64,000 nt of DNA from Rickettsiales bacterium UBA2645 (GCA_002359655.1 DENL01000005.1:13192-77191); one strand, 5' to 3'; counted from the stretch's first letter, positions 2,849-56,471 are shown. The notes: generated from the letters alone by a model not told the origin. Program-made: numbers and translations.

Positions 2849-4081
2849 ATGGCAAAATTAGAAATTAAAAATCTGAAAAAACGACAAGCTAAAGAGACTC
2901 GCTTTCAATTTTTTGGCATGTTGGCAATTGGTTTTTCTCTGGCTTTTTTAGTGGCTTTATTTGGCATGATTTTGATCAAAAGTAGCGGAGCTTTTTCACA
3001 GACTAAAATTGCTCTTGAAATTGATTTAACTGCGCAAGCAGTCACAGAAAATTCTCAAAATGATGAAATCGGCTACCGCCGCTTGATCAAAAAATCTTTG
3101 CGAGAAAAATTTCCTGATGCGACTAAGGTGATTGACATTAACTTTTTGTACCAAATGCTAAGCAAAGTTGCTTCTTTAGAGCTGGAAGAGCAGGTTAAAA
3201 AAAATCCAGATTTGCTTGGCAAAAAAAATATTTTTTGGCTTTCTGCCTCGTCAAAAATTGATGTTTATTTCAAACATAAATCATCTGGCAGTTTGACTGA
3301 AAAACAAAAAATTTGGGCAGATAAATTAATTACAAACAAAGAAATCAAAACTTTTTTTAACGGCAGTTTTCTTAAATTTGCTGATTCACGCGAGCCAGAA
3401 ATTGCCGGCATTGGCGCTGGTTTGATTGGATCGTTTTTAGTAATGGTAATTTTTCTGGGATTAGCTTTTCCAATTGGCGTGATGTGCGCTTTTTATTTGG
3501 AAGAATTTGCTGCTAAAAATCGTGTCACCGACATCATCGAGATCAGTATTAACAACCTTGCTGCAATTCCTTCAATAATTTACGGCTTGCTTGGTTTGAC
3601 GGTTTATTTGCAGTTTTTTTATTTGCCGCGCTCTTCGGCTTTGGTTGGCGGAATGACATTATTTATTTTAGTTTTGCCGGTGATTATTATTGCCACGCGC
3701 AACACAATACGCTCAATTCCAAACTCAATTCGTGATGCAGCAATGGCGCTTGGTGCTTCGAAAGTTGAAATTGTCTGGCATCATTTGTTGCCGCTTTCAG
3801 TTCCCGGAATCATGACGGGAACAATTTTGGCAATTTCACGCGCCCTTGGCGAAACCGCGCCACTCTTGATGATTGGCATGATCGCTTTCATTGCCGATAT
3901 TCCACAAAATTTCACCGATCCAACAACTGTATTGCCAGTGCAAATTTATTTGTGGTCAGATTCTCCTGAAATTGGTTTTGCCGAAAAAACTGCTGCGGCA
4001 ATTTTGGTTCTTCTTGGTTTTCTGATTTTATTTAACTTAGTTGCGATTATTTTGCGTAAAAGATTTGAAAGGAAATGGTAG
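2849..4081 (+). CDS. pstA: Phosphate ABC transporter permease PstA (long form)
   Basis: 410 aa with an N-terminal TM, a large loop, then the permease core carrying 'SRALGETAPLLMIG'. This is the typical PstA C-terminal half. Confidence 0.85.
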   Translation: MAKLEIKNLKKRQAKETRFQFFGMLAIGFSLAFLVALFGMILIKSSGAFSQTKIALEIDLTAQAVTENSQNDEIGYRRLIKKSLREKFPDATKVIDINFLYQMLSKVASLELEEQVKKNPDLLGKKNIFWLSASSKIDVYFKHKSSGSLTEKQKIWADKLITNKEIKTFFNGSFLKFADSREPEIAGIGAGLIGSFLVMVIFLGLAFPIGVMCAFYLEEFAAKNRVTDIIEISINNLAAIPSIIYGLLGLTVYLQFFYLPRSSALVGGMTLFILVLPVIIIATRNTIRSIPNSIRDAAMALGASKVEIVWHHLLPLSVPGIMTGTILAISRALGETAPLLMIGMIAFIADIPQNFTDPTTVLPVQIYLWSDSPEIGFAEKTAAAILVLLGFLILFNLVAIILRKRFERKW

Positions 4082-7116: not shown

Positions 7117-9081
7117 CTAAGAACACATCGATTTGTCTTTAGTTTTACAAAACACAATTGCTTCCACTAACCTTTTGTAATCGTCGCCTTTAATAAAATA
7201 ATCATCAAAACCAGCGTTTAAGATTTCGTGAATTTTTTCTTTTTCACTTTCACCAGTAAAAGCAATTATTGGTGTTAGCGCTAAATTATTATTAGTTTGA
7301 AATTCACGCAGCTTTTTTGCCACTAAAACTCCGCTTAATTCTGGCATGTTAATATCAAGCAAAATCAAATCATAAACATGCTCTTTAGCCATGTTTAGAG
7401 CTTCTTCTCCGTTTCTTACTTCATCAGTTTTAACGTCAAATTTTTCTAAATATTTTACCGTTAAAATAATATTTACATTCTCGTCATCGGCTAAGAGAAT
7501 TTTTTTATCTTTAAGATTTTTTCTGATTTCTTTTTCTGTAAGCAAGTTTTTTTCTAACTTGATTAGAGACCATTTTGAAACTTCTCTAAGAAAGAAACTC
7601 GCCGGAGCATATTTTGCCACATAGCTACTGAATCCAGCTTTTTTCAATCTTCCAAAAATAGGTTCTAAGCTTTTGAAGGAATAAGCAATGATTGGGGTTG
7701 TGCGATCAAACTCACGGATTTTTTGTACTAAAGAAACTGCATCAACTTCCGACATTTCAACTTCGGCTATTACTAAATCATAAGTATTGGAGCCAATCAT
7801 TTCTAGGGCATCGTCACCATTACCGACTAGATCACAAGTTGTTGATTGCAGATTTTTTTCTAACAATTTTTTAATATTTTCTGCACTCGATTTATGGTCA
7901 TCGATTAGCAATATTTTGTTAGTTCCCGGCTGTTTTGCTTTTCTAGTTTCTTTAGGAAAGGCTAAAATAAATTCACTAAATTCACCCTCGATTGAATTAC
8001 AAGAAATTGCACCGCCAAAGCTACTCATAGTTTTGCGGCAAAATGCCAAGCCAAGTCCGGTGCCGCCTTCTTTGCCGGAAGTAGAGAAAACTTCAAACAA
8101 ACTATGTAATTTGCTTTCTGGAATACCCGGCCCGTCATCACGAACATAAATGCGATTGAAACGATCGTCACTGATTTCAGCCCTGATGGTGATGGTTAAA
8201 TTAGGATGAGATCTTAAGTAATAAAAAGTGTTCTTAAATAAATTGAAGAAAACATAGCTTAGCAAAGTCTCATTACACTTCACTTTGAAATCGTTCTCTT
8301 CATTGATTTCAATAAAGATTTTTTCTTTTTCGTTTGCTGCAAAAGTATATTCTTTCATTACTGTTTTAATGATTTCTGAAATCAGACAATCTTTAAAAGC
8401 TGTAGTATCGATTGGTTTTTGCTTGATGCTGTCCAAAATTATATCAATCAAAATATTACCACGCTTGGCTGAGGAAGCAGCTATATCAAGCGACTCAACA
8501 ATTTCTTGAAACTCTCTTTTTTTAAGTGGCGTGATTTTTTCGCTGTCATCATCGCAACAAAATTTCTCAAGCAATTTGGCTTGATTGAGTTTTTCTTTTA
8601 CTAACTCAGTTGATTGACGCACGGTATTTAAAGGGTTGCGCATTTCATGAGCGATTGATCCGCTAAGTCCCAAATAATTTTGTCTGGCTTCAAATTCATC
8701 TAACGCCTTTCTAAGCAAGGCTGAAACCTGCACCACATCCCAAGGTTTGGTCAGATAAGCAAAAACGTTACTTTTATTAATGGCGGAAATGTTGTCTTCA
8801 AGATTGGCGTAAGCAGTGGTTATAATTCTAATGATGTTTTGGTTTTTTTCTCTGACAGCTGTTAAAAGATCAACCCCATTGATTTTGGGCATTTTTTGAT
8901 CAGAAACTACAACAGCGATATTGAAATGTTTTTCATCAATAATCTGCAAAACTTCACTTGGATTTGTGGTAGCAATAATATTGAAATGCTGACCAAAAAG
9001 TTTTTCGAAATATTTGACCGACTTTTCTTCGTCGTCCACGAAAATAATAGAATATTTTGAATTGTTATTTTTATCTGTCAT
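7117..9081 (-). CDS. Hybrid sensor histidine kinase, REC-HisKA-HATPase-pseudoREC-REC
   Basis: 654 aa. N-terminal receiver 'IIFVDDEE...VVVSDQKMPKINGVDLL...KPWD'. H-box 'SIAHEMRNPLN'. HATPase 'VRDDGPGIP...GGTGLGLAFCR'. A second receiver-like domain has Glu at the acceptor position ('LVIAEVEMSEVD'). The third receiver is canonical ('LILLDINMPELSG'). No TM segments seen. Confidence 0.85.
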   Translation of the reverse strand: MTDKNNNSKYSIIFVDDEEKSVKYFEKLFGQHFNIIATTNPSEVLQIIDEKHFNIAVVVSDQKMPKINGVDLLTAVREKNQNIIRIITTAYANLEDNISAINKSNVFAYLTKPWDVVQVSALLRKALDEFEARQNYLGLSGSIAHEMRNPLNTVRQSTELVKEKLNQAKLLEKFCCDDDSEKITPLKKREFQEIVESLDIAASSAKRGNILIDIILDSIKQKPIDTTAFKDCLISEIIKTVMKEYTFAANEKEKIFIEINEENDFKVKCNETLLSYVFFNLFKNTFYYLRSHPNLTITIRAEISDDRFNRIYVRDDGPGIPESKLHSLFEVFSTSGKEGGTGLGLAFCRKTMSSFGGAISCNSIEGEFSEFILAFPKETRKAKQPGTNKILLIDDHKSSAENIKKLLEKNLQSTTCDLVGNGDDALEMIGSNTYDLVIAEVEMSEVDAVSLVQKIREFDRTTPIIAYSFKSLEPIFGRLKKAGFSSYVAKYAPASFFLREVSKWSLIKLEKNLLTEKEIRKNLKDKKILLADDENVNIILTVKYLEKFDVKTDEVRNGEEALNMAKEHVYDLILLDINMPELSGVLVAKKLREFQTNNNLALTPIIAFTGESEKEKIHEILNAGFDDYFIKGDDYKRLVEAIVFCKTKDKSMCS

Positions 9082-9421: not shown

Positions 9422-9898
9422 TTGTATTACAACATAATGACCAAAAAATTAAAACAAATTCAACTTACAAACCTAGACAAACGCTTTAATCAAATGCGTT
9501 TTGAGCCAAAGCCAAAATCTGGTTGGATCAAAACAATCAGAGAAGCTCTGTCCATGCCCTTGGCTTTTCCAGCAAAAAAATTAAAAATTTCACAGCCCAG
9601 CGTTGCAAGACTAGAAAAAAACGAAATTGACGAAAGCATCACCCTAAAATCTTTAAGACAATTAGCAGCAGTAATGAATTGCGAATTACATTACGCCATT
9701 ATTCCACACCAAAAATCTTTAAAAAAAATTGTCGAGAAACGCTCTGAACAAAAAGCAAGATCAATAGTTAATGATGTAAATAACACCATGTCTCTTGAAG
9801 ATCAAAAAATTAAAGATCCCAAAAGATCAGTTAAATTTTTAGCTAAAGAATTTGCCGAAGATCTAAAAAAAAGTTTGTGGCACGATGATGAAAATTAA
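9422..9898 (+). CDS. XRE-type HTH protein (resembles 'mobile mystery protein A'), putative antitoxin/regulator of the adjacent Fic gene
   Basis: 158 aa; the start may instead be Met6 at 9437. 'GWIKTIREALSM...LKISQPSVARLEKNE...LKSLRQLAAVMNCELHYAIIP' is an HTH_3-like pattern. It overlaps the Fic gene by 14 nt. Confidence 0.6.
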   Translation: MYYNIMTKKLKQIQLTNLDKRFNQMRFEPKPKSGWIKTIREALSMPLAFPAKKLKISQPSVARLEKNEIDESITLKSLRQLAAVMNCELHYAIIPHQKSLKKIVEKRSEQKARSIVNDVNNTMSLEDQKIKDPKRSVKFLAKEFAEDLKKSLWHDDEN

Positions 9899-47484: not shown

Positions 47485-47733
47485 TTAGCCAATTTTTATC
47501 TCTAAAGCGTGCAGCCCTTTTTTAAACTCCTCTTCGAGCAACTTATTGATTCTTCGATGTGCACCAACTGCGTTTAAATTTTTTAACTCTTCAGATTCAA
47601 TTGTAATCGCAAAGTGAGTTTCATTTGTTCCATTATCTCCACTATGCCCAGCATGAAGATAAGAATTATTTTTCACCTGTAAAAAACTTGGCCTAAGATT
47701 TTCTTGCAGAGTTTTTTCGATCCTTTGCTTCAT
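47485..47733 (-). CDS. BolA family protein (second copy in the window)
   Basis: 82 aa. 'NSYLHAGHSG...THFAITIESEELKNLNAVGAHRRINKLL'. Confidence 0.7.
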   Translation of the reverse strand: MKQRIEKTLQENLRPSFLQVKNNSYLHAGHSGDNGTNETHFAITIESEELKNLNAVGAHRRINKLLEEEFKKGLHALEIKIG

Positions 47734-47746
47734 GTTAAAAAACCTG

Positions 47747-47761
47747 TTAATAAATTGTTAA
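47747..47761 (+). promoter_or_regulatory. CtrA-box-like TTAA-N7-TTAA
   Basis: TTAAtaaattgTTAA read directly. Two further TTAA pairs have N8 spacing (47735-47750 and 47929-47944). Confidence 0.35.
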
Positions 47762-47772
47762 AAAACCAAGAC

Positions 47773-47781
47773 TTATCCACT
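47773..47781 (+). promoter_or_regulatory. DnaA box TTATCCACT (8/9 match to TTATCCACA)
   Basis: Read directly. Weaker relatives are 'tttttcaca' (~47813) and 'taattcaca' (~47960). Confidence 0.5.
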
Positions 47782-47995
47782 GATAATTTTTTTTGAAAAA
47801 ACTTATTAAAATTTTTCACATTTTCTTAACAGGTTTTTTCTCTGTTAAAAAGTTTTTCTTTAAAAAAAATTTCTGTTAATAACTTTTATAAATTCTCTAT
47901 TTTCAAGGTTAAAAAGGTTTTTAAAATGTTAATAAAAATGTTAAAAACATTTAATTAAATAATTCACAGCACCAATAAAAATAATAAATATTTAA

Positions 47996-49030
47996 ATGAA
48001 TAAGTTACTTAATACACTTCTTAAAAAAGAGAAAAACTCTACTCCACCAATTTGGGTAATGCGGCAAGCAGGTAGATATTTACCAGAATATCGCGAAATT
48101 AGAGTAAATGTAAAAAATTTTTTAGAACTTTGTTACACTCCAAAACTAGCTTCAGAGGTTACACTTCAGCCAATTCGTCGATTTGGTTTTGATGCAGCAA
48201 TTATTTTTTCTGATATTTTAGTAATACCAGATGCTCTGGGTGTAAAAGTTGAATTTGTTAAAAATGAAGGTCCAAAGTTACAAAAAATTTCTTCAGCTGC
48301 TGATTTAAAAAATCTAAAAACTTCCAATATTAAGTCGCATTTAAACCCAGTTTTCGAAGCGCTAGATCTAACAAAATCTAAACTTAATAAAGAGACAGCT
48401 TTGATTGGTTTTTCTGGCGCTCCATGGACGCTAGCTTGTTACATGATTGAAGGAGCTGGATCAAAGAATTTTGAAAGTGTGCGTATTGCTGCAGTTCGTG
48501 ATGAAGAATTTTTTTCTCAGTTAATTGAAATTTTAACACAAAGTGTAATTGAGTATTTATCACTACAAATCAAAGCCGGCGCTGATATTGTGAAAATATT
48601 TGATTCTTGGGCCGGAGTTTTGCCACCAGATCAGTTAAGAAAATGGGTGATTCAACCAACCAAAAAAATTATTTCTGAACTTAAAAAACTTCATCCACAA
48701 ACGCCAATAATTGCCTTTCCACGCGGTATCGGCATGAATTACTTAGAATTTGCCAGAAATGTTGATTGTGAAGGTTTGGCAATTGATCAAACTGTAGAAA
48801 AAAAATGGGCAAAAGAAAATCTAGGCAAAAATTCTAACAAAATTTTGCAAGGAAATTTAGACAATATTCTGCTTGCGTTTGGATCGAAAAAAGAAATCGA
48901 AAAAGAAGTTTTAGAAATTTTAGAAACCTCCAAAGATCAACCATTTATTTTCAACTTAGGTCACGGAATTTTGCCGCAAACTCCAATTGAAAATGTGGAG
49001 CTATTACTGAATTTAGTAAGAAAAAACTAA
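47996..49030 (+). CDS. hemE: Uroporphyrinogen decarboxylase
   Basis: 344 aa. 'PPIWVMRQAGRYLPEYR', 'DAAIIFSDILV', 'FNLGHGI'. Confidence 0.95.
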   Translation: MNKLLNTLLKKEKNSTPPIWVMRQAGRYLPEYREIRVNVKNFLELCYTPKLASEVTLQPIRRFGFDAAIIFSDILVIPDALGVKVEFVKNEGPKLQKISSAADLKNLKTSNIKSHLNPVFEALDLTKSKLNKETALIGFSGAPWTLACYMIEGAGSKNFESVRIAAVRDEEFFSQLIEILTQSVIEYLSLQIKAGADIVKIFDSWAGVLPPDQLRKWVIQPTKKIISELKKLHPQTPIIAFPRGIGMNYLEFARNVDCEGLAIDQTVEKKWAKENLGKNSNKILQGNLDNILLAFGSKKEIEKEVLEILETSKDQPFIFNLGHGILPQTPIENVELLLNLVRKN

Positions 49031-49797: not shown

Positions 49798-50673
49798 TTA
49801 AATAACATCAAGCCCAATATCAACAGCGCGAACAGAGTGAGTCAAAGAGCCAATTGAAATGAAATCAATATCAAGTAAGCGAAATTTTTTGATTTTGTTT
49901 AAATTAATGCCGCCAGAAATTTCGATTAAAATTTTTTTAGATTTATAAGCGCGAATTTTTGCGGTGCATTTTTTGATTTCTACAACGCTCATATTATCAA
50001 GCATAATGATGTCAGGCTTCACTGGTATTGCTTCTACAACTTGCATGAAATTATCGCACTCAACTTCAATTTTTACTTTCTTATTTTGTTTCGCAGCCAT
50101 GATTGCTTGTTTAACTCCGCCAGCTGCCGCGATGTGATTATCTTTAATCAAAATCATATCCGACAAATTAAAACGATGATTTTTTCCACCACCAATCACA
50201 ACAGCTTGTTTTTGTAGTATGCGCAGTGTTGGTAAAGTTTTGCGTGTGTCTAAAATTTTGATTTTTTTGTTGTCTAAAGTTTTGACGAACTGATTTGTTG
50301 CGCTAGAAATTCCGCTTAAATGTTGCAGCAAATTAAGTATTACTCTTTCAGCAGCAAAAATTAATTTAGCATCACCAAAGCCTTCTGCTATTGCTTCTCC
50401 AGCTTTTATTATATCGCCATCTTTAGCGTTAACTTGCAGACCTAGAAAAATATTTTTGAATTTTTCTAGTTTGGTTAGCGAGTCAAAACAGTGATTAATT
50501 GCGGCAACTCCGCATAAAATGATTTCTTCGCGAGCAGTAATTTTAAAAGAAACTCTGGTGTTGTCTGCAATGGTTAGATCTGAAGTTAAATCTTGCTCGG
50601 ACGCGTCTTCTTCGAGTGCTGCTTGGCAAATTTTTTTTAACTCGTCATCAAATTTTAAAGTTTGGCGTGACAT
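49798..50673 (-). CDS. nadC: Nicotinate-nucleotide diphosphorylase (carboxylating), quinolinate phosphoribosyltransferase
   Basis: 291 aa. 'DTRKTLPTLR', 'GGGKNHRFNLSDMILIKDNH', 'IMLDNM', 'ISGGIN'. Confidence 0.92.
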   Translation of the reverse strand: MSRQTLKFDDELKKICQAALEEDASEQDLTSDLTIADNTRVSFKITAREEIILCGVAAINHCFDSLTKLEKFKNIFLGLQVNAKDGDIIKAGEAIAEGFGDAKLIFAAERVILNLLQHLSGISSATNQFVKTLDNKKIKILDTRKTLPTLRILQKQAVVIGGGKNHRFNLSDMILIKDNHIAAAGGVKQAIMAAKQNKKVKIEVECDNFMQVVEAIPVKPDIIMLDNMSVVEIKKCTAKIRAYKSKKILIEISGGINLNKIKKFRLLDIDFISIGSLTHSVRAVDIGLDVI

Positions 50674-51428
50674 TTTTTGGGATCAAATTTTCCTTCTTTA
50701 AGTTTGCGCAATCTTTCTTTGATGAAATGGCGCATAAAGCTTAACTCTTCAGAACTGACTTGTCTGGTTCCACTTTCGCTTTCATCAATAATTTTTTGAA
50801 TGACAAAAAAAGCCATGCAGCCGTCACCCATTTCTTCGTGAATAAAGGCCGGCATTTGTTTGGTCCAAAGTGGAGCGGTTTTAGCGTTATTTTCGCTTAA
50901 TTTGTAAGCTAATTCTAAAGCGCGATTGATGTCGCCCAAATTATTTTTGGCAATGTAAATCGCTTGAAACAGCCACCACCAATTTTTGTCAATATCTTTA
51001 GAAGAGTGCTCATCAAGATAGTTAATTACATATTTTGTATCTTGATGAGTCTGAGTTTGCGAATAAATATAAGCCGCAAGAGCGGGGGCAAAATTTGACT
51101 GATCGTTAAGTTGATCAAGTGTTGTCAGCCACTGATAAATGCGAGAATAATCATATTTTTTTAAAGCAACAAAGCCGGCAAAAACATCGCCAGAATTTTG
51201 CAGACGGGCAGCCATAACGCGAAATAGAAATTCGTTGTCGCCAAGTGATGCGGCCGAAATCAAATATTTGCTTGGAGCTTCTGGAACAATATCGAAAGCT
51301 GGTTTTATACTTTCAGTTTTGTGCCAGAAAAAAAGCTGCAGCACAAAAAATAAAATAAAAAACCAGAAGAAAATTTTGTGAGAGTAGAGGTGATAAAAGA
51401 AACGAAAATCTTGAAATGAGAGAGACAT
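50655..51428 (-). CDS. Hypothetical membrane-anchored protein (one N-terminal TM, helical repeat-like body)
   Basis: 257 aa with no recognised motif. It overlaps nadC by 19 nt and follows the ABC-2-like permease after a 5-nt gap. Confidence 0.5.
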   Translation of the reverse strand: MSLSFQDFRFFYHLYSHKIFFWFFILFFVLQLFFWHKTESIKPAFDIVPEAPSKYLISAASLGDNEFLFRVMAARLQNSGDVFAGFVALKKYDYSRIYQWLTTLDQLNDQSNFAPALAAYIYSQTQTHQDTKYVINYLDEHSSKDIDKNWWWLFQAIYIAKNNLGDINRALELAYKLSENNAKTAPLWTKQMPAFIHEEMGDGCMAFFVIQKIIDESESGTRQVSSEELSFMRHFIKERLRKLKEGKFDPKKCHAKL

Positions 51429-51433
51429 TTTGT

Positions 51434-52207
51434 TTAAAACTGTTTCTTCTTAAAATCATGAAAAGCCATGAAAATCATCAGCGGAATGTAGATCAAAGAT
51501 TGCAGTAAAATTATTTTTAAATTGCTGAAATCAGAAACGCCGTAACTAAGCCAAGAGCTTTGACCAAATAAATCAAGACGTGGGAAAATTGCTGAGAGAA
51601 TTTTCAAGATCAATCCGAAAGATCTTGCTGAAAACTCGAAAGTGTTGGAAGTGACTTTTTCTGGCAAATTGATTGCCATCACAAACATTCCCATCAATCG
51701 CGAAATTATGTAAAAACCAAAAGTTGCCATGATTGAGGAAAAAGAATTTTTCAAAATCAGCGAAGCAAGAATTGCGAAAGAAATCACGATCATCATCTCA
51801 GAAAGAAGGCTTAAAGACCAAATCAGCAGACCAAATTTGTCAGCTTTGGTAACGATTAAAATTGCCAATATCAGAGGCAGGATAATCACAAAGGCGGCAA
51901 TAAAAAATCCGGCTAAGTAACTGAAAATAAACTGTTGGCGCGAGATTGATTTTGATAAAATGAATTCGACTTCTTTATTTTCAAAAGCGCGATTGATGTT
52001 GAGGCAGACAAATAAAATCATTCCCAAAACCAAAACGCCGCGACTTAGTCCACCAATATATGCGGCAGTTGTTTGTCTTTCCTCAACCAAAGAAGTTGAG
52101 CCAAGAAAAATCGACAGTGAAAAGGCAATTACAAGCGAAATAAAGAGCCCGAGATAAAGCCTGTCTCTAGTACCGCTTAGCAGAATATATTTTAAGATAG
52201 ATTTCAT
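51434..52207 (-). CDS. ABC-2-type permease-like membrane protein (no partner ATPase adjacent)
   Basis: 257 aa, 6 TM. 'ENKEVEFILSKSISRQQFIFSYLAG' resembles the ABC-2/NosY-type 'E..T.E.LLSKPISR' segment. Confidence 0.55.
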   Translation of the reverse strand: MKSILKYILLSGTRDRLYLGLFISLVIAFSLSIFLGSTSLVEERQTTAAYIGGLSRGVLVLGMILFVCLNINRAFENKEVEFILSKSISRQQFIFSYLAGFFIAAFVIILPLILAILIVTKADKFGLLIWSLSLLSEMMIVISFAILASLILKNSFSSIMATFGFYIISRLMGMFVMAINLPEKVTSNTFEFSARSFGLILKILSAIFPRLDLFGQSSWLSYGVSDFSNLKIILLQSLIYIPLMIFMAFHDFKKKQF

Positions 52208-52209
52208 CT

Positions 52210-53808
52210 TTAGTAGGAAAAGACTTTTTCAAGTTTGCTCATTTTTTCTGGCTTGTCCTCAGGAGCATTTTTGTTGTAAAAGCTGCGGTCTTGTTTGTTA
52301 AGATTATTTCCGCTGCTGACGATTGTCGCCTTAATAAAAATGACCGTCTCAATCTTTCTGGTGTAGTTACTAAAAGCGCCAAAAATATATTTGAAGAAAG
52401 GAATTCTCATCAAGAATGGAATGCCAGTTCCATTGTTGTTAATACTTTCTGATATTAAGCCACCGATAACTAAAATATTTCCACTTTGTATTTTGGCGAT
52501 GGTGGAAAGTTCTCTGGTGTTGATAATTGGAATTGTATTGCCCAAAGACTTACCAGTTGAAGGATTGACCGAAGGGTCGATGGCAACTTCACCAGTGTCG
52601 ATTGATAGTTTTGGTTTAACTTCCAAAGTAATCTCGTTAGTGGCTAGATTTATTGAAGGAGTGATTTCTAGCTTGGCACCGACATCCAATTCGTTTTTAG
52701 TGGCGGTAACTGTTGAAACCGTGTTTGTTGCAGTACCAGTAGAAGTTGATGAAGAGGCACTAACTGTAAAGTATATTTTTTTCTGCGTGAAATCCAAAGT
52801 GGCCTTTTGGTTATTAATGGCGTTAACTCTTGGACTGGAAATTGATTTGGCTTTGCCAAATTGTTCCAGAGCGCTGATGGTTGCTCCCAAATCTCCACCA
52901 AGTCCCAATAGTTTAACTTTAGGAACTATTGCTGAAATTGAAGCTGTTGATCCAGAAGGACTACTAAAAGAAGTATTAGTTGATGCAGACTTTGCGTCAT
53001 TGACCCAGCTCCAATTAATTCCCGTATCAAACTCTTTGCTCAACGTAACTTCGATAATTTTGGCTTCGATCAAAACTTGTGCTGAGGAATTTCTGTAAAC
53101 ATCATCAAGATATTGAGAGACTTGTTCATGCTGAGATCTAGTAGCGTAAACTGAAATTATGCCAGCTGATTTATTGCTAGTATATCTGGAAGATGAGACA
53201 GAACTAGAGACGTTTTCAGAAGAAGAGTCTGAGCTAGAGCTAGAGTTTGAAGGGCTTGAATTCGAAGAGCCGTCAGAAAGAATTGCCGAAATATTGCTCT
53301 CAACATCTGACCAAAGCTGACTGCCAGATAAAAAATCAACAAAGTAATTTTTGCTGTAAGGTAGGTCGCGCTCGAAATGCAAAACTCCGTTTTGATAAGA
53401 GTAGCGAAGATTTCCCAAAGTTGCGATGCGATCAATAACTTCCTTCAAAGGACGATTTTTGGCATTGATTACAACGCCACCAGAAATTCCGCTGTCAAGA
53501 TCTACGTCAATTTTGGCAACACGTCCAAGTTCAATTAAAACATCCTTCAAAGGAATTTGATCAGTAACTGAAAAAGAGATTATTTTGTCACCGCCAATTT
53601 GTGGCGGTGGTGGATTCAAAATAAGCTTTGAAAAGCTTGGAATAGAATTTTCAGATGGCTTTTTTTCCAAAGCCAAGTTCTTATTTTTTGTAGAATCTAT
53701 TTTACTTGGCGAACAAGAAAGCAAGACTAACAGCAGCGCAGGAAGTAAAATTTTTCTAAAAAAATTCATTGGGCGGAAAGCTTGATTTCGCAGGGTTGGC
53801 AAGGTCAA
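52210..53808 (-). CDS. Secretin-family outer-membrane lipoprotein (MshL/PilQ/GspD-like)
   Basis: C-terminal secretin core 'ISSPRVNAINNQKATL...IPIINTRELSTIAKIQSGNILVIGGLI...GIPFLMRIPFFKYIFG'. Lipobox 'LLVLLSC|S' (probable true start Met14 at 53769). Ser-rich linker 'SDGSSNSSPSNSSSSSDSSSENVSSSVSSS'. Confidence 0.8.
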   Translation of the reverse strand: MTLPTLRNQAFRPMNFFRKILLPALLLVLLSCSPSKIDSTKNKNLALEKKPSENSIPSFSKLILNPPPPQIGGDKIISFSVTDQIPLKDVLIELGRVAKIDVDLDSGISGGVVINAKNRPLKEVIDRIATLGNLRYSYQNGVLHFERDLPYSKNYFVDFLSGSQLWSDVESNISAILSDGSSNSSPSNSSSSSDSSSENVSSSVSSSRYTSNKSAGIISVYATRSQHEQVSQYLDDVYRNSSAQVLIEAKIIEVTLSKEFDTGINWSWVNDAKSASTNTSFSSPSGSTASISAIVPKVKLLGLGGDLGATISALEQFGKAKSISSPRVNAINNQKATLDFTQKKIYFTVSASSSTSTGTATNTVSTVTATKNELDVGAKLEITPSINLATNEITLEVKPKLSIDTGEVAIDPSVNPSTGKSLGNTIPIINTRELSTIAKIQSGNILVIGGLISESINNNGTGIPFLMRIPFFKYIFGAFSNYTRKIETVIFIKATIVSSGNNLNKQDRSFYNKNAPEDKPEKMSKLEKVFSY

Positions 53809-55337: not shown

Positions 55338-56471
55338 ATGCTAAATTCATCAAGCGAGTTTTTGTTTCCAGCTGATGTCCCTTATACCCCAGCTCCTCAG
55401 CAGCCTTTGAGAAGGAGATACAATATTACGGAAAGATTTAAACTAGCATTTCAGGCATCATTACTATCGTTTATCTCTTTCGTCATGCTAAGAAGTGTCA
55501 TTGTTAATGGCTTATCATCTTATTCGAATTTCTTAGTAGCCCCATTTGGATCAGTTCTTGCGGCAACTTCCATATTTGCTTGGGATATTGCGCTATATGG
55601 TCAAAGCAATGTTTTAGATCTGGCAAAAAGAGCTTTTGACGCAGTTATTACAAAAATTAATCTCATTAGAAATGGCTCGAAGCCAGATAAGCAAGTCAAC
55701 TCAGTGTTACCAAAGATCAGTAATACTGACTCTGAGTCTGATTTGGCAGTACTTAAAAAACTTTTGAGTGAATCAGAAATATTACCATCGCAAACAATGT
55801 TGAGCATATCCTCATGTGCTCCAGCATTTATTGATGCAATAGAATCAGATTTCTCACCATATCGCACCGCCGCAGAAGAATTTGTCTCTAAAGCTCCAAA
55901 ACAGGTTTCGACCGATGAATTGATTGTTTTAACAAATTACTATTTTTCTTCTTCCAAAAACTTATCAGCTTATGAAGCATTGGTTGAAAAGTTATTGGTA
56001 AATAAAGATGAGGCAAAATCTTTCATAAATAACAGAAATGATTTTGTTAAAAATTGGTTTCAAATGGATTACGGGTCTCGATTTGGCGGAAAAATTTCAG
56101 ATCCTAAAGTCTCTCAGCTATTGTTTTTGTTGCCAGTTTTAAATGAAATCGAAAGAGAGCAAAAATCAGATTCACAAAAATTTCAGCATGTTGAAATAGA
56201 GCTAATCAAAAGCAAATTTAATAAACATTTGGTCGAAATTTATCAGAATGTTGGCACGCATGATGAGACTAGGCTGGCACTTCTTTATGTGGCCAAGTTT
56301 TTGACTACTAAAAGTTGTGATTTTATTGGAGGTAAAAGTTGCCAACAAAATCAAGCAGAGCTGTCTTCAGTTGATAGGCATGATGAAGAAACAAGCATTC
56401 CTAATCCAAATACAGAACCAAAATCAGGCATGAATCTTAGATCTAGGTATCGCGGTTTAGAAAATGTTTAG
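55338..56471 (+). CDS. Hypothetical protein, no family recognised (two N-terminal hydrophobic helices)
   Basis: 377-aa ORF between nuoF and ispDF with no motif I can place. Confidence 0.5.
   Translation: MLNSSSEFLFPADVPYTPAPQQPLRRRYNITERFKLAFQASLLSFISFVMLRSVIVNGLSSYSNFLVAPFGSVLAATSIFAWDIALYGQSNVLDLAKRAFDAVITKINLIRNGSKPDKQVNSVLPKISNTDSESDLAVLKKLLSESEILPSQTMLSISSCAPAFIDAIESDFSPYRTAAEEFVSKAPKQVSTDELIVLTNYYFSSSKNLSAYEALVEKLLVNKDEAKSFINNRNDFVKNWFQMDYGSRFGGKISDPKVSQLLFLLPVLNEIEREQKSDSQKFQHVEIELIKSKFNKHLVEIYQNVGTHDETRLALLYVAKFLTTKSCDFIGGKSCQQNQAELSSVDRHDEETSIPNPNTEPKSGMNLRSRYRGLENV

Follow-up and report, generated by a model that had tools for sequence, protein, structure and literature searches.

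A candidate hemE-linked replication origin with putative TTWTTAACA-type DnaA boxes in an uncultured freshwater alphaproteobacterium

Adjacency to hemE is an established indicator of alphaproteobacterial replication origins (PMC1914354; PMC6393856), and the second boundary gene of these hemE-linked origins varies by lineage (PMC1914354). Cori of Caulobacter crescentus and the predicted origins of Rickettsia, Wolbachia, Ehrlichia and Anaplasma are AT-rich, intergenic, situated directly upstream of hemE and carry several DnaA boxes. PMC5043019 quotes TTWTNCACA, after Schaper and Messer, as the Escherichia coli consensus for the DnaA box. A different sequence, TTATTAACA, found upstream of dnaA in Mycoplasma hominis, M. 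mobile and M. arthritidis, carries a DnaA-box annotation there (PMC2751442), and in the literature it is also treated as a non-consensus DnaA box of T5-like phages. Here a 64,000-nt stretch from Rickettsiales bacterium UBA2645 (GCA_002359655.1, DENL01000005.1:13192-77191), referred to as the window, is described with respect to the spacer between a bolA-family gene and hemE. The spacer has the same location and general make-up as the hemE-linked origins, and its dominant repeat is the TTATTAACA type of box. From sequence comparison the spacer is read as the DnaA-dependent, hemE-linked oriC of an uncultured freshwater alphaproteobacterium, with a probability of roughly 80%.

The window was extended by 9 kb on the left (locus L085) and 10 kb on the right (L088), giving 83 kb in all. 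Related loci, labeled with L-numbers (L002, L019 and so on), were collected by a HemE protein scan with one genome kept per species. About 25 genomes were obtained, with hemE 62-80% identical; these are freshwater and groundwater metagenome-assembled genomes (MAGs) of 26-43% G+C, labeled by their depositors as Rickettsiales, Pelagibacterales or Alphaproteobacteria. Nineteen genomes entered the spacer alignment. The window forms part of a 108-kb JGI metagenome contig (sample 3300014050), and GCA_009924125.1 is a MAG from its species. The spacer is identical in four other contigs from the same population, which made within-population polymorphism uninformative.

Origin-type features of the bolA-hemE spacer

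A first-pass annotation of the window had proposed an origin beside hemE, together with cumulative GC skew and DnaA-box density as checks. Both were run over the 83 kb, and both single out the spacer. The strict motif TTWTYMACA occurs 8 times in a 300-bp interval at the spacer and at most twice anywhere else, against a background of 0.24 per kb. With a cluster defined as at least 3-4 boxes in an intergenic region, the spacer holds the only one in the 83 kb. The minimum of the cumulative G-C count, taken per base, is at 48048, close to the start of hemE at 47996. Together with the switch in third-codon-position (GC3) skew and the conserved box offsets in about 25 relatives described below, these results uphold the placement of the origin beside hemE.

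Raw skew cannot be separated from gene orientation here, and for this reason GC3 skew per gene was used in their place, with an origin-type switch fitted at 70 gene boundaries. On the left side of the spacer, genes of the minus strand have more G at the third codon position than those of the plus strand (-0.093 vs -0.209, p = 0.03), and on the right side the relation is reversed (-0.272 for minus-strand and -0.040 for plus-strand genes, p = 0.012). The best of the 70 breakpoints is 47663, the clpX/hemE boundary (permutation p = 0.012 over all breakpoints). The 17 relatives with full flanks average a skew of -0.029 for the left flank and +0.029 for the right (Wilcoxon p = 0.001, the genomes being non-independent), and 8 of them have the local skew minimum no more than 600 bp from the spacer. 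Thus a skew switch of the kind expected at oriC is found at the spacer within the 83 kb. Gene orientation alone is weak evidence. The minus-strand bias that had been reported from 15.5 to 45.3 kb is present, with all but one open reading frame (ORF) between 15.5 and 45.4 kb on the minus strand, but genes of the 0-15 kb region are mostly on the plus strand and the right flank is mixed.

The extreme AT-richness that had been ascribed to the 262-bp spacer is borne out, its G+C content being 17% compared with about 36% for the whole window, and the left neighbor, previously called bolA-like, is assigned to BolA by Pfam; the coordinates given earlier were all correct on recheck. The low G+C content is as expected for a region with an AT-rich unwinding element. 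The segment 47974-48003 is the least stable 30-mer of the spacer and the second least stable in the 64 kb. Leftward from the spacer the gene order is bolA, then clpX and clpP.

The oriC assignment is strong, although not proven, with 83 kb of the chromosome covered. If correct, it fixes the origin for a widespread uncultured freshwater clade, in which about 25 lake and groundwater genomes, one per species, have the same architecture. With the origin placed, MAG assemblies could be oriented, growth rates estimated from coverage (peak-to-trough ratio) and strand bias analyzed.

The repeat as a probable DnaA-box variant

Eight plus-strand copies of GTTAAWAA start at 47734, 47746, 47757, 47844, 47875, 47908, 47928 and 47940, as the first-pass annotation had listed, and the minus strand of the spacer has no copies. 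The spacer thus holds 8 of the 18 plus-strand copies of the 64 kb. When the spacer itself is shuffled 20,000 times with dinucleotides preserved, the motif is found 0.28 times on average, with a maximum of 4, and therefore the repeat is not a by-product of AT-richness. The full repeat unit is the 9-mer TGTTAAWAA, present in seven of the eight copies. The copy at 47908 reads GGTTAAAAA and has a column identity of 0.32 in the 19 aligned spacers, compared with 0.83-0.98 for the seven others (R1-R5, R7 and R8). From this comparison it is private to this genome and probably non-functional.

The complement of TGTTAAWAA is TTWTTAACA, which matches TTWTNCACA at 8 of the 9 positions. The mismatch, C to A at position 6, falls on a fixed position of the consensus, and the repeat varies (W at 3 and T>C at 5) exactly where the consensus is degenerate. 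A random 9-mer with the composition of the spacer comes within one mismatch of the consensus, on either strand, with a probability of 0.0044. Origin-finding programs, as described in PMC8287927, tolerate 2-4 mismatches per box. Read on its other strand, TGTTAAWAA is a DnaA-box variant that has been described before. It is taken as such because of the match to the consensus, the exchanges with canonical boxes in relatives (see below) and the precedent in Mycoplasma (PMC2751442) and T5-like phages; binding of DnaA to TTAACA-type boxes would follow from these likenesses. The first-pass annotation, which knew of no description of GTTAAWAA as an origin element, had read the wrong strand. For motif searches in general, both strands of a repeat ought to be examined before novelty is claimed for it.

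About 12 DnaA-type boxes can be recognized. Seven are reverse boxes and conserved, and the other five face forward (TTATCCACT, TTATTAAAA, TTTTTCACA, TTCTTAACA and TAATTCACA). Their order is R1-R2-R3 (gaps of 3 and 2 bp), F1, Fx-F2-F3, R4, R5, R7-R8 (gap of 3 bp) and F4; thus the reverse boxes form a triplet, two singles and a pair, with gaps of 2-3 bp within arrays. F1, F2, F4, R1-R5, R7 and R8 have at most one mismatch to TTWTNCACA, and F3 and Fx have two. The DnaA box that had been placed at 47773-81 is present, and TTATCCAC at 47773 is a single copy in the 64 kb with both strands counted. The repeats had also been described as phased. This is true at a period of 10.8 bp (resultant 0.91, p ~0.006 after scanning 9.5-12), at which seven or eight reverse boxes share one helical face, but at 10.5 bp the phasing is lost (0.36, not significant).

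Boxes are found at matching offsets from the hemE ATG in nearly all of the relatives. The offsets in the window are -262, -250, -239, -152, -121, -68 and -56, and those of L003 are -261, -250, -239, -152, -121, -68 and -56. Identity in the aligned spacers is 0.88 for box columns and 0.64 for the remaining spacer (p = 4e-21), and the conservation of boxes persists over genomes of 26-43% G+C. Same-orientation tandem box pairs with 2-3 bp gaps number 58 in the 400 nt upstream of hemE in 25 relatives; there are none outside the origin in 193 kb of the relatives' flanks and none elsewhere in the 83 kb of this genome.

Homologous sites are occupied by TTAACA-type boxes in some genomes and by canonical boxes in others. 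In L019, R7-R8 is replaced by TGTGAATAA-N3-TGTGAATAA, i.e., two canonical TTATTCACA boxes with orientation and spacing kept. Among forward boxes a perfect TTATCCACA is found at F1 (L008), at F3 (L002, L003 and L005) and at F4 (L006), and lower-GC relatives have TTATTAACA, TTTTTAACA, TTCTTAACA or TAATTAACA. These exchanges are what is expected if TGTTAAWAA and canonical boxes are evolutionarily equivalent. The clade thus offers a natural experiment on DnaA-box evolution, in which the path from TTATCCACA to TTATTAACA can be traced over 26-43% G+C, with one orientation frozen and the other drifting.

In a sister subclade (L021, L023 and L037; hemE ~63% identical), 7-11 perfect copies of TTATTAACA are present upstream of hemE in both orientations, at L021 1990-2334, L023 3660-4005 and L037 2260-2604. 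The homologue of Fx is intact there (TTATCAACA) and that of F2 is degenerate, which represents a turnover of boxes between neighboring positions. A conserved AAAAACTTATTAA block, at first unexplained, is the homologue of the TTATCAACA box of these three loci.

Table 1. Boxes and other features of the bolA-hemE spacer, with the two genes that bound it (window coordinates)
Feature	Position	Strand	Description
BolA-family gene	47485..47733	-	Left boundary; Pfam PF01722, E = 1e-22
bolA-hemE spacer	47734..47995		Candidate oriC
R1 box	47733..47741	-	TGTTAAAAA on top strand, minus strand TTTTTAACA; 1 mismatch to TTWTNCACA; overlaps bolA start codon; conserved 0.83
R2 box	47745..47753	-	Minus strand TTATTAACA; conserved 0.90
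CtrA-type site	47746..47761	-	TTAA-N7-TTAAC from R3 and R2 cores; only such site in 83 kb
R3 box	47756..47764	-	Minus strand TTTTTAACA; conserved 0.92
F1 box	47773..47781	+	TTATCCACT, near-perfect DnaA box; homologue TTATCCACA in L008, TTATTAACA in L004
AAAAAC and Fx box	47797..47811	+	Fx TTATTAAAA, degenerate; conserved 0.91; homologue TTATCAACA in L021, L023, L037
F2 box	47812..47820	+	TTTTTCACA, perfect TTWTNCACA; relatives toggle among TTTTCCACA, TTATTAACA and similar forms
F3 box	47823..47831	+	TTCTTAACA; 11 bp from F2; perfect TTATCCACA in L002, L003, L005
R4 box	47843..47851	-	Solitary; minus strand TTTTTAACA; conserved 0.89
R5 box	47874..47882	-	Solitary; minus strand TTATTAACA; conserved 0.94
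R6	47907..47915	-	GGTTAAAAA on top strand, minus strand TTTTTAACC; absent or different in relatives
R7 box	47927..47935	-	Minus strand TTATTAACA; conserved 0.98; homologue TGTGAATAA (canonical TTATTCACA) in L019
R8 box	47939..47947	-	Minus strand TTTTTAACA; 12 bp from R7; homologue TGTGAATAA in L019, L011
F4 box	47960..47968	+	TAATTCACA; homologue TTATCCACA in L006, AAATCCACA in L007, L008, L013
Candidate unwinding element	47969..48003		GC-rich GCACC, then AATAAAAATAATAAATATTTAAATGAATAA; putative placement
hemE (uroporphyrinogen decarboxylase)	47996..49030	+	Right boundary; PF01208 URO-D

Alternative readings and a possible mode of initiation

Several observations weigh against the spacer as a DnaA-dependent oriC or against DnaA as the one protein that reads its boxes. 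The affinity of E. coli DnaA falls with any change from TTATNCACA, as given in PMC5043019. Of 123 reverse boxes, 119 have A at position 6, and this extends to relatives of 40-43% G+C. Forward boxes have 38 A and 35 C there, the C being in the GC-richer genomes; these two constraints are not obviously explained by one protein with one preference. It should be noted that the relatives are phylogenetically non-independent and that the alignment p-values are therefore optimistic. The profile of breakpoints is shallow, and with 83 kb covered a deeper skew minimum may lie elsewhere on the chromosome. The left neighbor is bolA, not the DUF299/COG1806 gene of Caulobacter and Rickettsia or the COG1253 gene of Wolbachia found at described alphaproteobacterial origins. 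The origin-associated motifs tried in the spacer, GATC (SeqA), GANTC (CcrM) and the IHF consensus (WATCAN5WTR, strict or loose, either strand), are all absent. Neither dnaA nor ctrA was found by Pfam on 30 ORFs of the window and the 9-kb and 10-kb extensions, and tblastn against 866 kb of sequence, with approximate sequences of DnaA from E. coli and CtrA from Caulobacter as queries, detected neither gene.

The asymmetry at position 6 bears on the possibility that the spacer is the origin but that TGTTAAWAA serves primarily as operators of a second protein, most plausibly CtrA or another OmpR/PhoB-type regulator of 11-bp direct repeats, which would silence or time initiation, with DnaA on the forward boxes only. 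The retention of A6, and hence of TTAA, in reverse boxes at 40-43% G+C, next to the drift of forward boxes to C6, suggests a TTAAC-specific constraint, and the CtrA half-site TTAAC lies inside every reverse box. CtrA sites also span the Caulobacter and Rickettsia origins, where they overlap DnaA boxes (PMC1914354; PMC6393856). The CtrA-type site of the first-pass annotation, which on the plus strand reads TTAA-N7-TTAA at 47747-61, does exist and is conserved. It is a perfect TTAA-N7-TTAAC formed by R2-R3, whose 11-bp spacing is invariant in 19 of 19 aligned genomes, and in relatives such sites have a density of 2.7 per kb within the spacer vs 0.03 per kb outside. However it is one of three tandem pairs, and the only one with the N7 spacing of CtrA; R1-R2 and R7-R8 are 12 bp apart (N8) in most genomes, and R4 and R5 are unpaired, with no TTWW partner at N7. 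Two half-sites 7 bp apart are thus a property of R2-R3 and not of the repeat as such. Also against a second protein as the main user, conservation reaches beyond TTAAC to all nine positions (TT at 1-2, T4, and ACA at 7-9), L019 lacks TTAA at R2, R3, R7 and R8, having TGTGAATAA at R7 and R8 and TGTTGATAA at R2 and R3 with 12-bp spacing, and the lack of tandem pairs outside the origin in 276 kb gives no sign of a regulon. In addition ctrA, although present in Rickettsiales, is missing from Pelagibacter (PMC2877005). Operators of a second protein as the primary role of the repeat are thus considered unlikely.

DnaA-box clusters also occur outside oriC in E. coli and B. subtilis. The spacer could accordingly be a titration or recycling locus of the datA/DARS type, or a divergent, DnaA-controlled promoter region of bolA and hemE, with oriC elsewhere, e.g., by dnaA. 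The view here is limited to 83 kb of the chromosome, and promoter-like hexamers overlap several of the boxes. Nonetheless the compositional strand switch is located exactly at the spacer, also when averaged over 17 relatives, linkage to hemE is the rule for alphaproteobacterial origins (PMC1914354; PMC6393856), 12 boxes in 262 bp at 17% G+C is an origin-like density, and the architecture has been kept over a long divergence (hemE 62-80% identity); a cluster of this kind is quite improbable. Both bolA and hemE are tied to iron or haem metabolism, their promoters must sit in the spacer, and a Fur-like hexamer, GATAAT, follows F1. Operators of an unrelated transcription factor, such as an iron or haem regulator of bolA and hemE with no role in replication, should thus also be considered. 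However 7-12 monomer sites, spread over the entire spacer and facing both ways, do not make an operator layout, the motif is one base from a DnaA box and is exchanged with canonical boxes, it does not recur upstream of other genes, and such a regulator would leave the skew switch unexplained. This last explanation is hardly credible.

Within the preferred reading, i.e., a DnaA-dependent oriC, the reverse boxes may carry two signals. They could be at once DnaA boxes and CtrA-type TTAAC half-sites, at which the initiator and a response-regulator repressor compete for identical bases, or the optimum of DnaA domain IV may have shifted in this clade to TTAAC, with C6 boxes as a second affinity class. 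Either version is a tentative proposal and is on the doubtful side, but if true it would explain the retention of A6 in reverse boxes and the drift in forward ones. The gene at 7117-9081 encodes a hybrid histidine kinase of 654 aa, which has three receiver-domain stretches and only a weak HisKA match; the protein does not have the CckA architecture and is therefore uninformative on a CtrA pathway.

In E. coli oriC, closely spaced same-orientation boxes together with oppositely oriented groups are the grammar of cooperative ATP-DnaA oligomerization. By analogy, DnaA monomers would first occupy the better boxes of the spacer, and ATP-DnaA would then cooperatively fill the closely spaced same-orientation arrays. 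The oppositely oriented oligomers may distort the 83% A+T DNA and lead to opening at a box-free A/T tract. The likeliest tract is 47969-48003, which adjoins F4, and helicase loading would presumably take place there. The least stable stretch, 47974-48003, directly follows F4 and the conserved GC-rich pentamer. CtrA, if the organism has it, could compete with DnaA at R2-R3, as in Caulobacter.

Other sequence signals were also considered. The DnaA-trio rule described in PMC8287927, which asks for three or more (NAN) repeats no farther than 16 bp from a box, is uninformative in 83% A+T DNA and no claim is made from it. A promoter and terminator scan gave only weak 9-of-12 promoter-like matches, several of which arise because TTAACA or TTCACA resembles TTGACA, and these were not used as evidence. 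Plasmid-type iterons (17-22 bp repeats by a rep gene) do not fit the spacer, given the 9-bp unit, bolA and hemE as neighbors, and the absence of a rep gene from the 83 kb. An Rfam search at gathering thresholds detected only one tRNA in the window and no RNA family in the spacer, and an RNA explanation of the spacer was ruled out on this basis.

Neighboring loci and comparison with described origins

A type II CRISPR-Cas locus begins at 61397 and runs through 63889 past the end of the window (L088). It consists of a CRISPR array of ~17 repeats with a 66-bp period (61397-62556), cas2 (62626-62958, minus strand), cas1 (62972-63889, minus strand) and, just beyond the window end, a 1118-aa Cas9; an ATP-dependent DNA ligase and a HipA/HTH pair adjoin the locus. 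At 1025-2698 a 557-aa Schlafen AlbA_2 / HATPase_c_4 protein is encoded, a putative DNA-binding ATPase of a type frequent in defence islands, and its gene is inserted between ABC-transporter permease genes at 139-1017 and 2849-4081. Overlapping HTH_3 (158 aa) and Fic/DOC (172 aa) genes at 9422-10403 have a toxin-antitoxin-like layout, and a zeta-toxin gene is located about 6 kb before the window, on its left side (L085 2933-3502). A pair of neighboring 257-aa ORFs (50655-52207), neither with a Pfam match and one with a translation that looks multi-pass hydrophobic, is directly upstream of a secretin gene (52210-53808). A 377-aa ORF at 55338-56471 also has no Pfam match.

Compared with Caulobacter, the spacer likewise has two classes of boxes, which in Caulobacter are the G and W boxes (PMC6393856). 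As in the hemE-linked origins, a TTAA-N7-TTAA(C) site overlaps DnaA boxes, and the hemE promoter(s) necessarily lie inside the origin. However there is one N7 CtrA-type site here vs 4-6 in those origins, and the spacer differs from them in having no IHF consensus or GANTC, as well as in its bolA boundary. The dominant box here is TTWTTAACA, whereas hemE-linked origins have TGATCCACA with W boxes, or TTATNCACA; about 12 boxes are found here compared with 2-5 counted in Rickettsiales. The Wolbachia ori consensus has TGTGAATAA and TGTGAATTA in one reverse orientation, beside TTATRCACA and TTATCCACA (PMC1914354, Additional file 6). This mixed-orientation layout resembles that of the bolA-hemE spacer, but with C at position 6.

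With E. coli oriC the spacer shares 9-bp boxes in two oppositely oriented groups, same-orientation neighbors 2-3 bp apart, and an AT-rich tract beside the terminal box (for the DnaA-oligomerization region, as outlined in PMC5716108). In contrast to E. coli, GATC/SeqA, IHF and 13-mer repeats are missing, the context is not gidA-mioC, and the orientation classes are interleaved (R-F-R-F) and not arranged in two halves.

The TTATTAACA box of M. hominis, M. mobile, M. arthritidis and T5-like phages is identical to minus-strand R2, R5 and R7; in those very AT-rich genomes it is interpreted as a 7-of-9 box. One or two annotated copies are found there by dnaA, whereas here seven conserved predicted copies are placed in arrays beside hemE. 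A clade-wide shift of the 9-mer in an otherwise ordinary oriC is also seen in Epsilonproteobacteria (core TTCAC) and in cyanobacteria (TTTTCCACA), and T at position 5 is shared with Epsilonproteobacteria. Unlike these variants, in which position 6 is regarded as constant, the boxes of the bolA-hemE spacer have changed at position 6 (core TTAAC), and canonical C6 boxes coexist with them.

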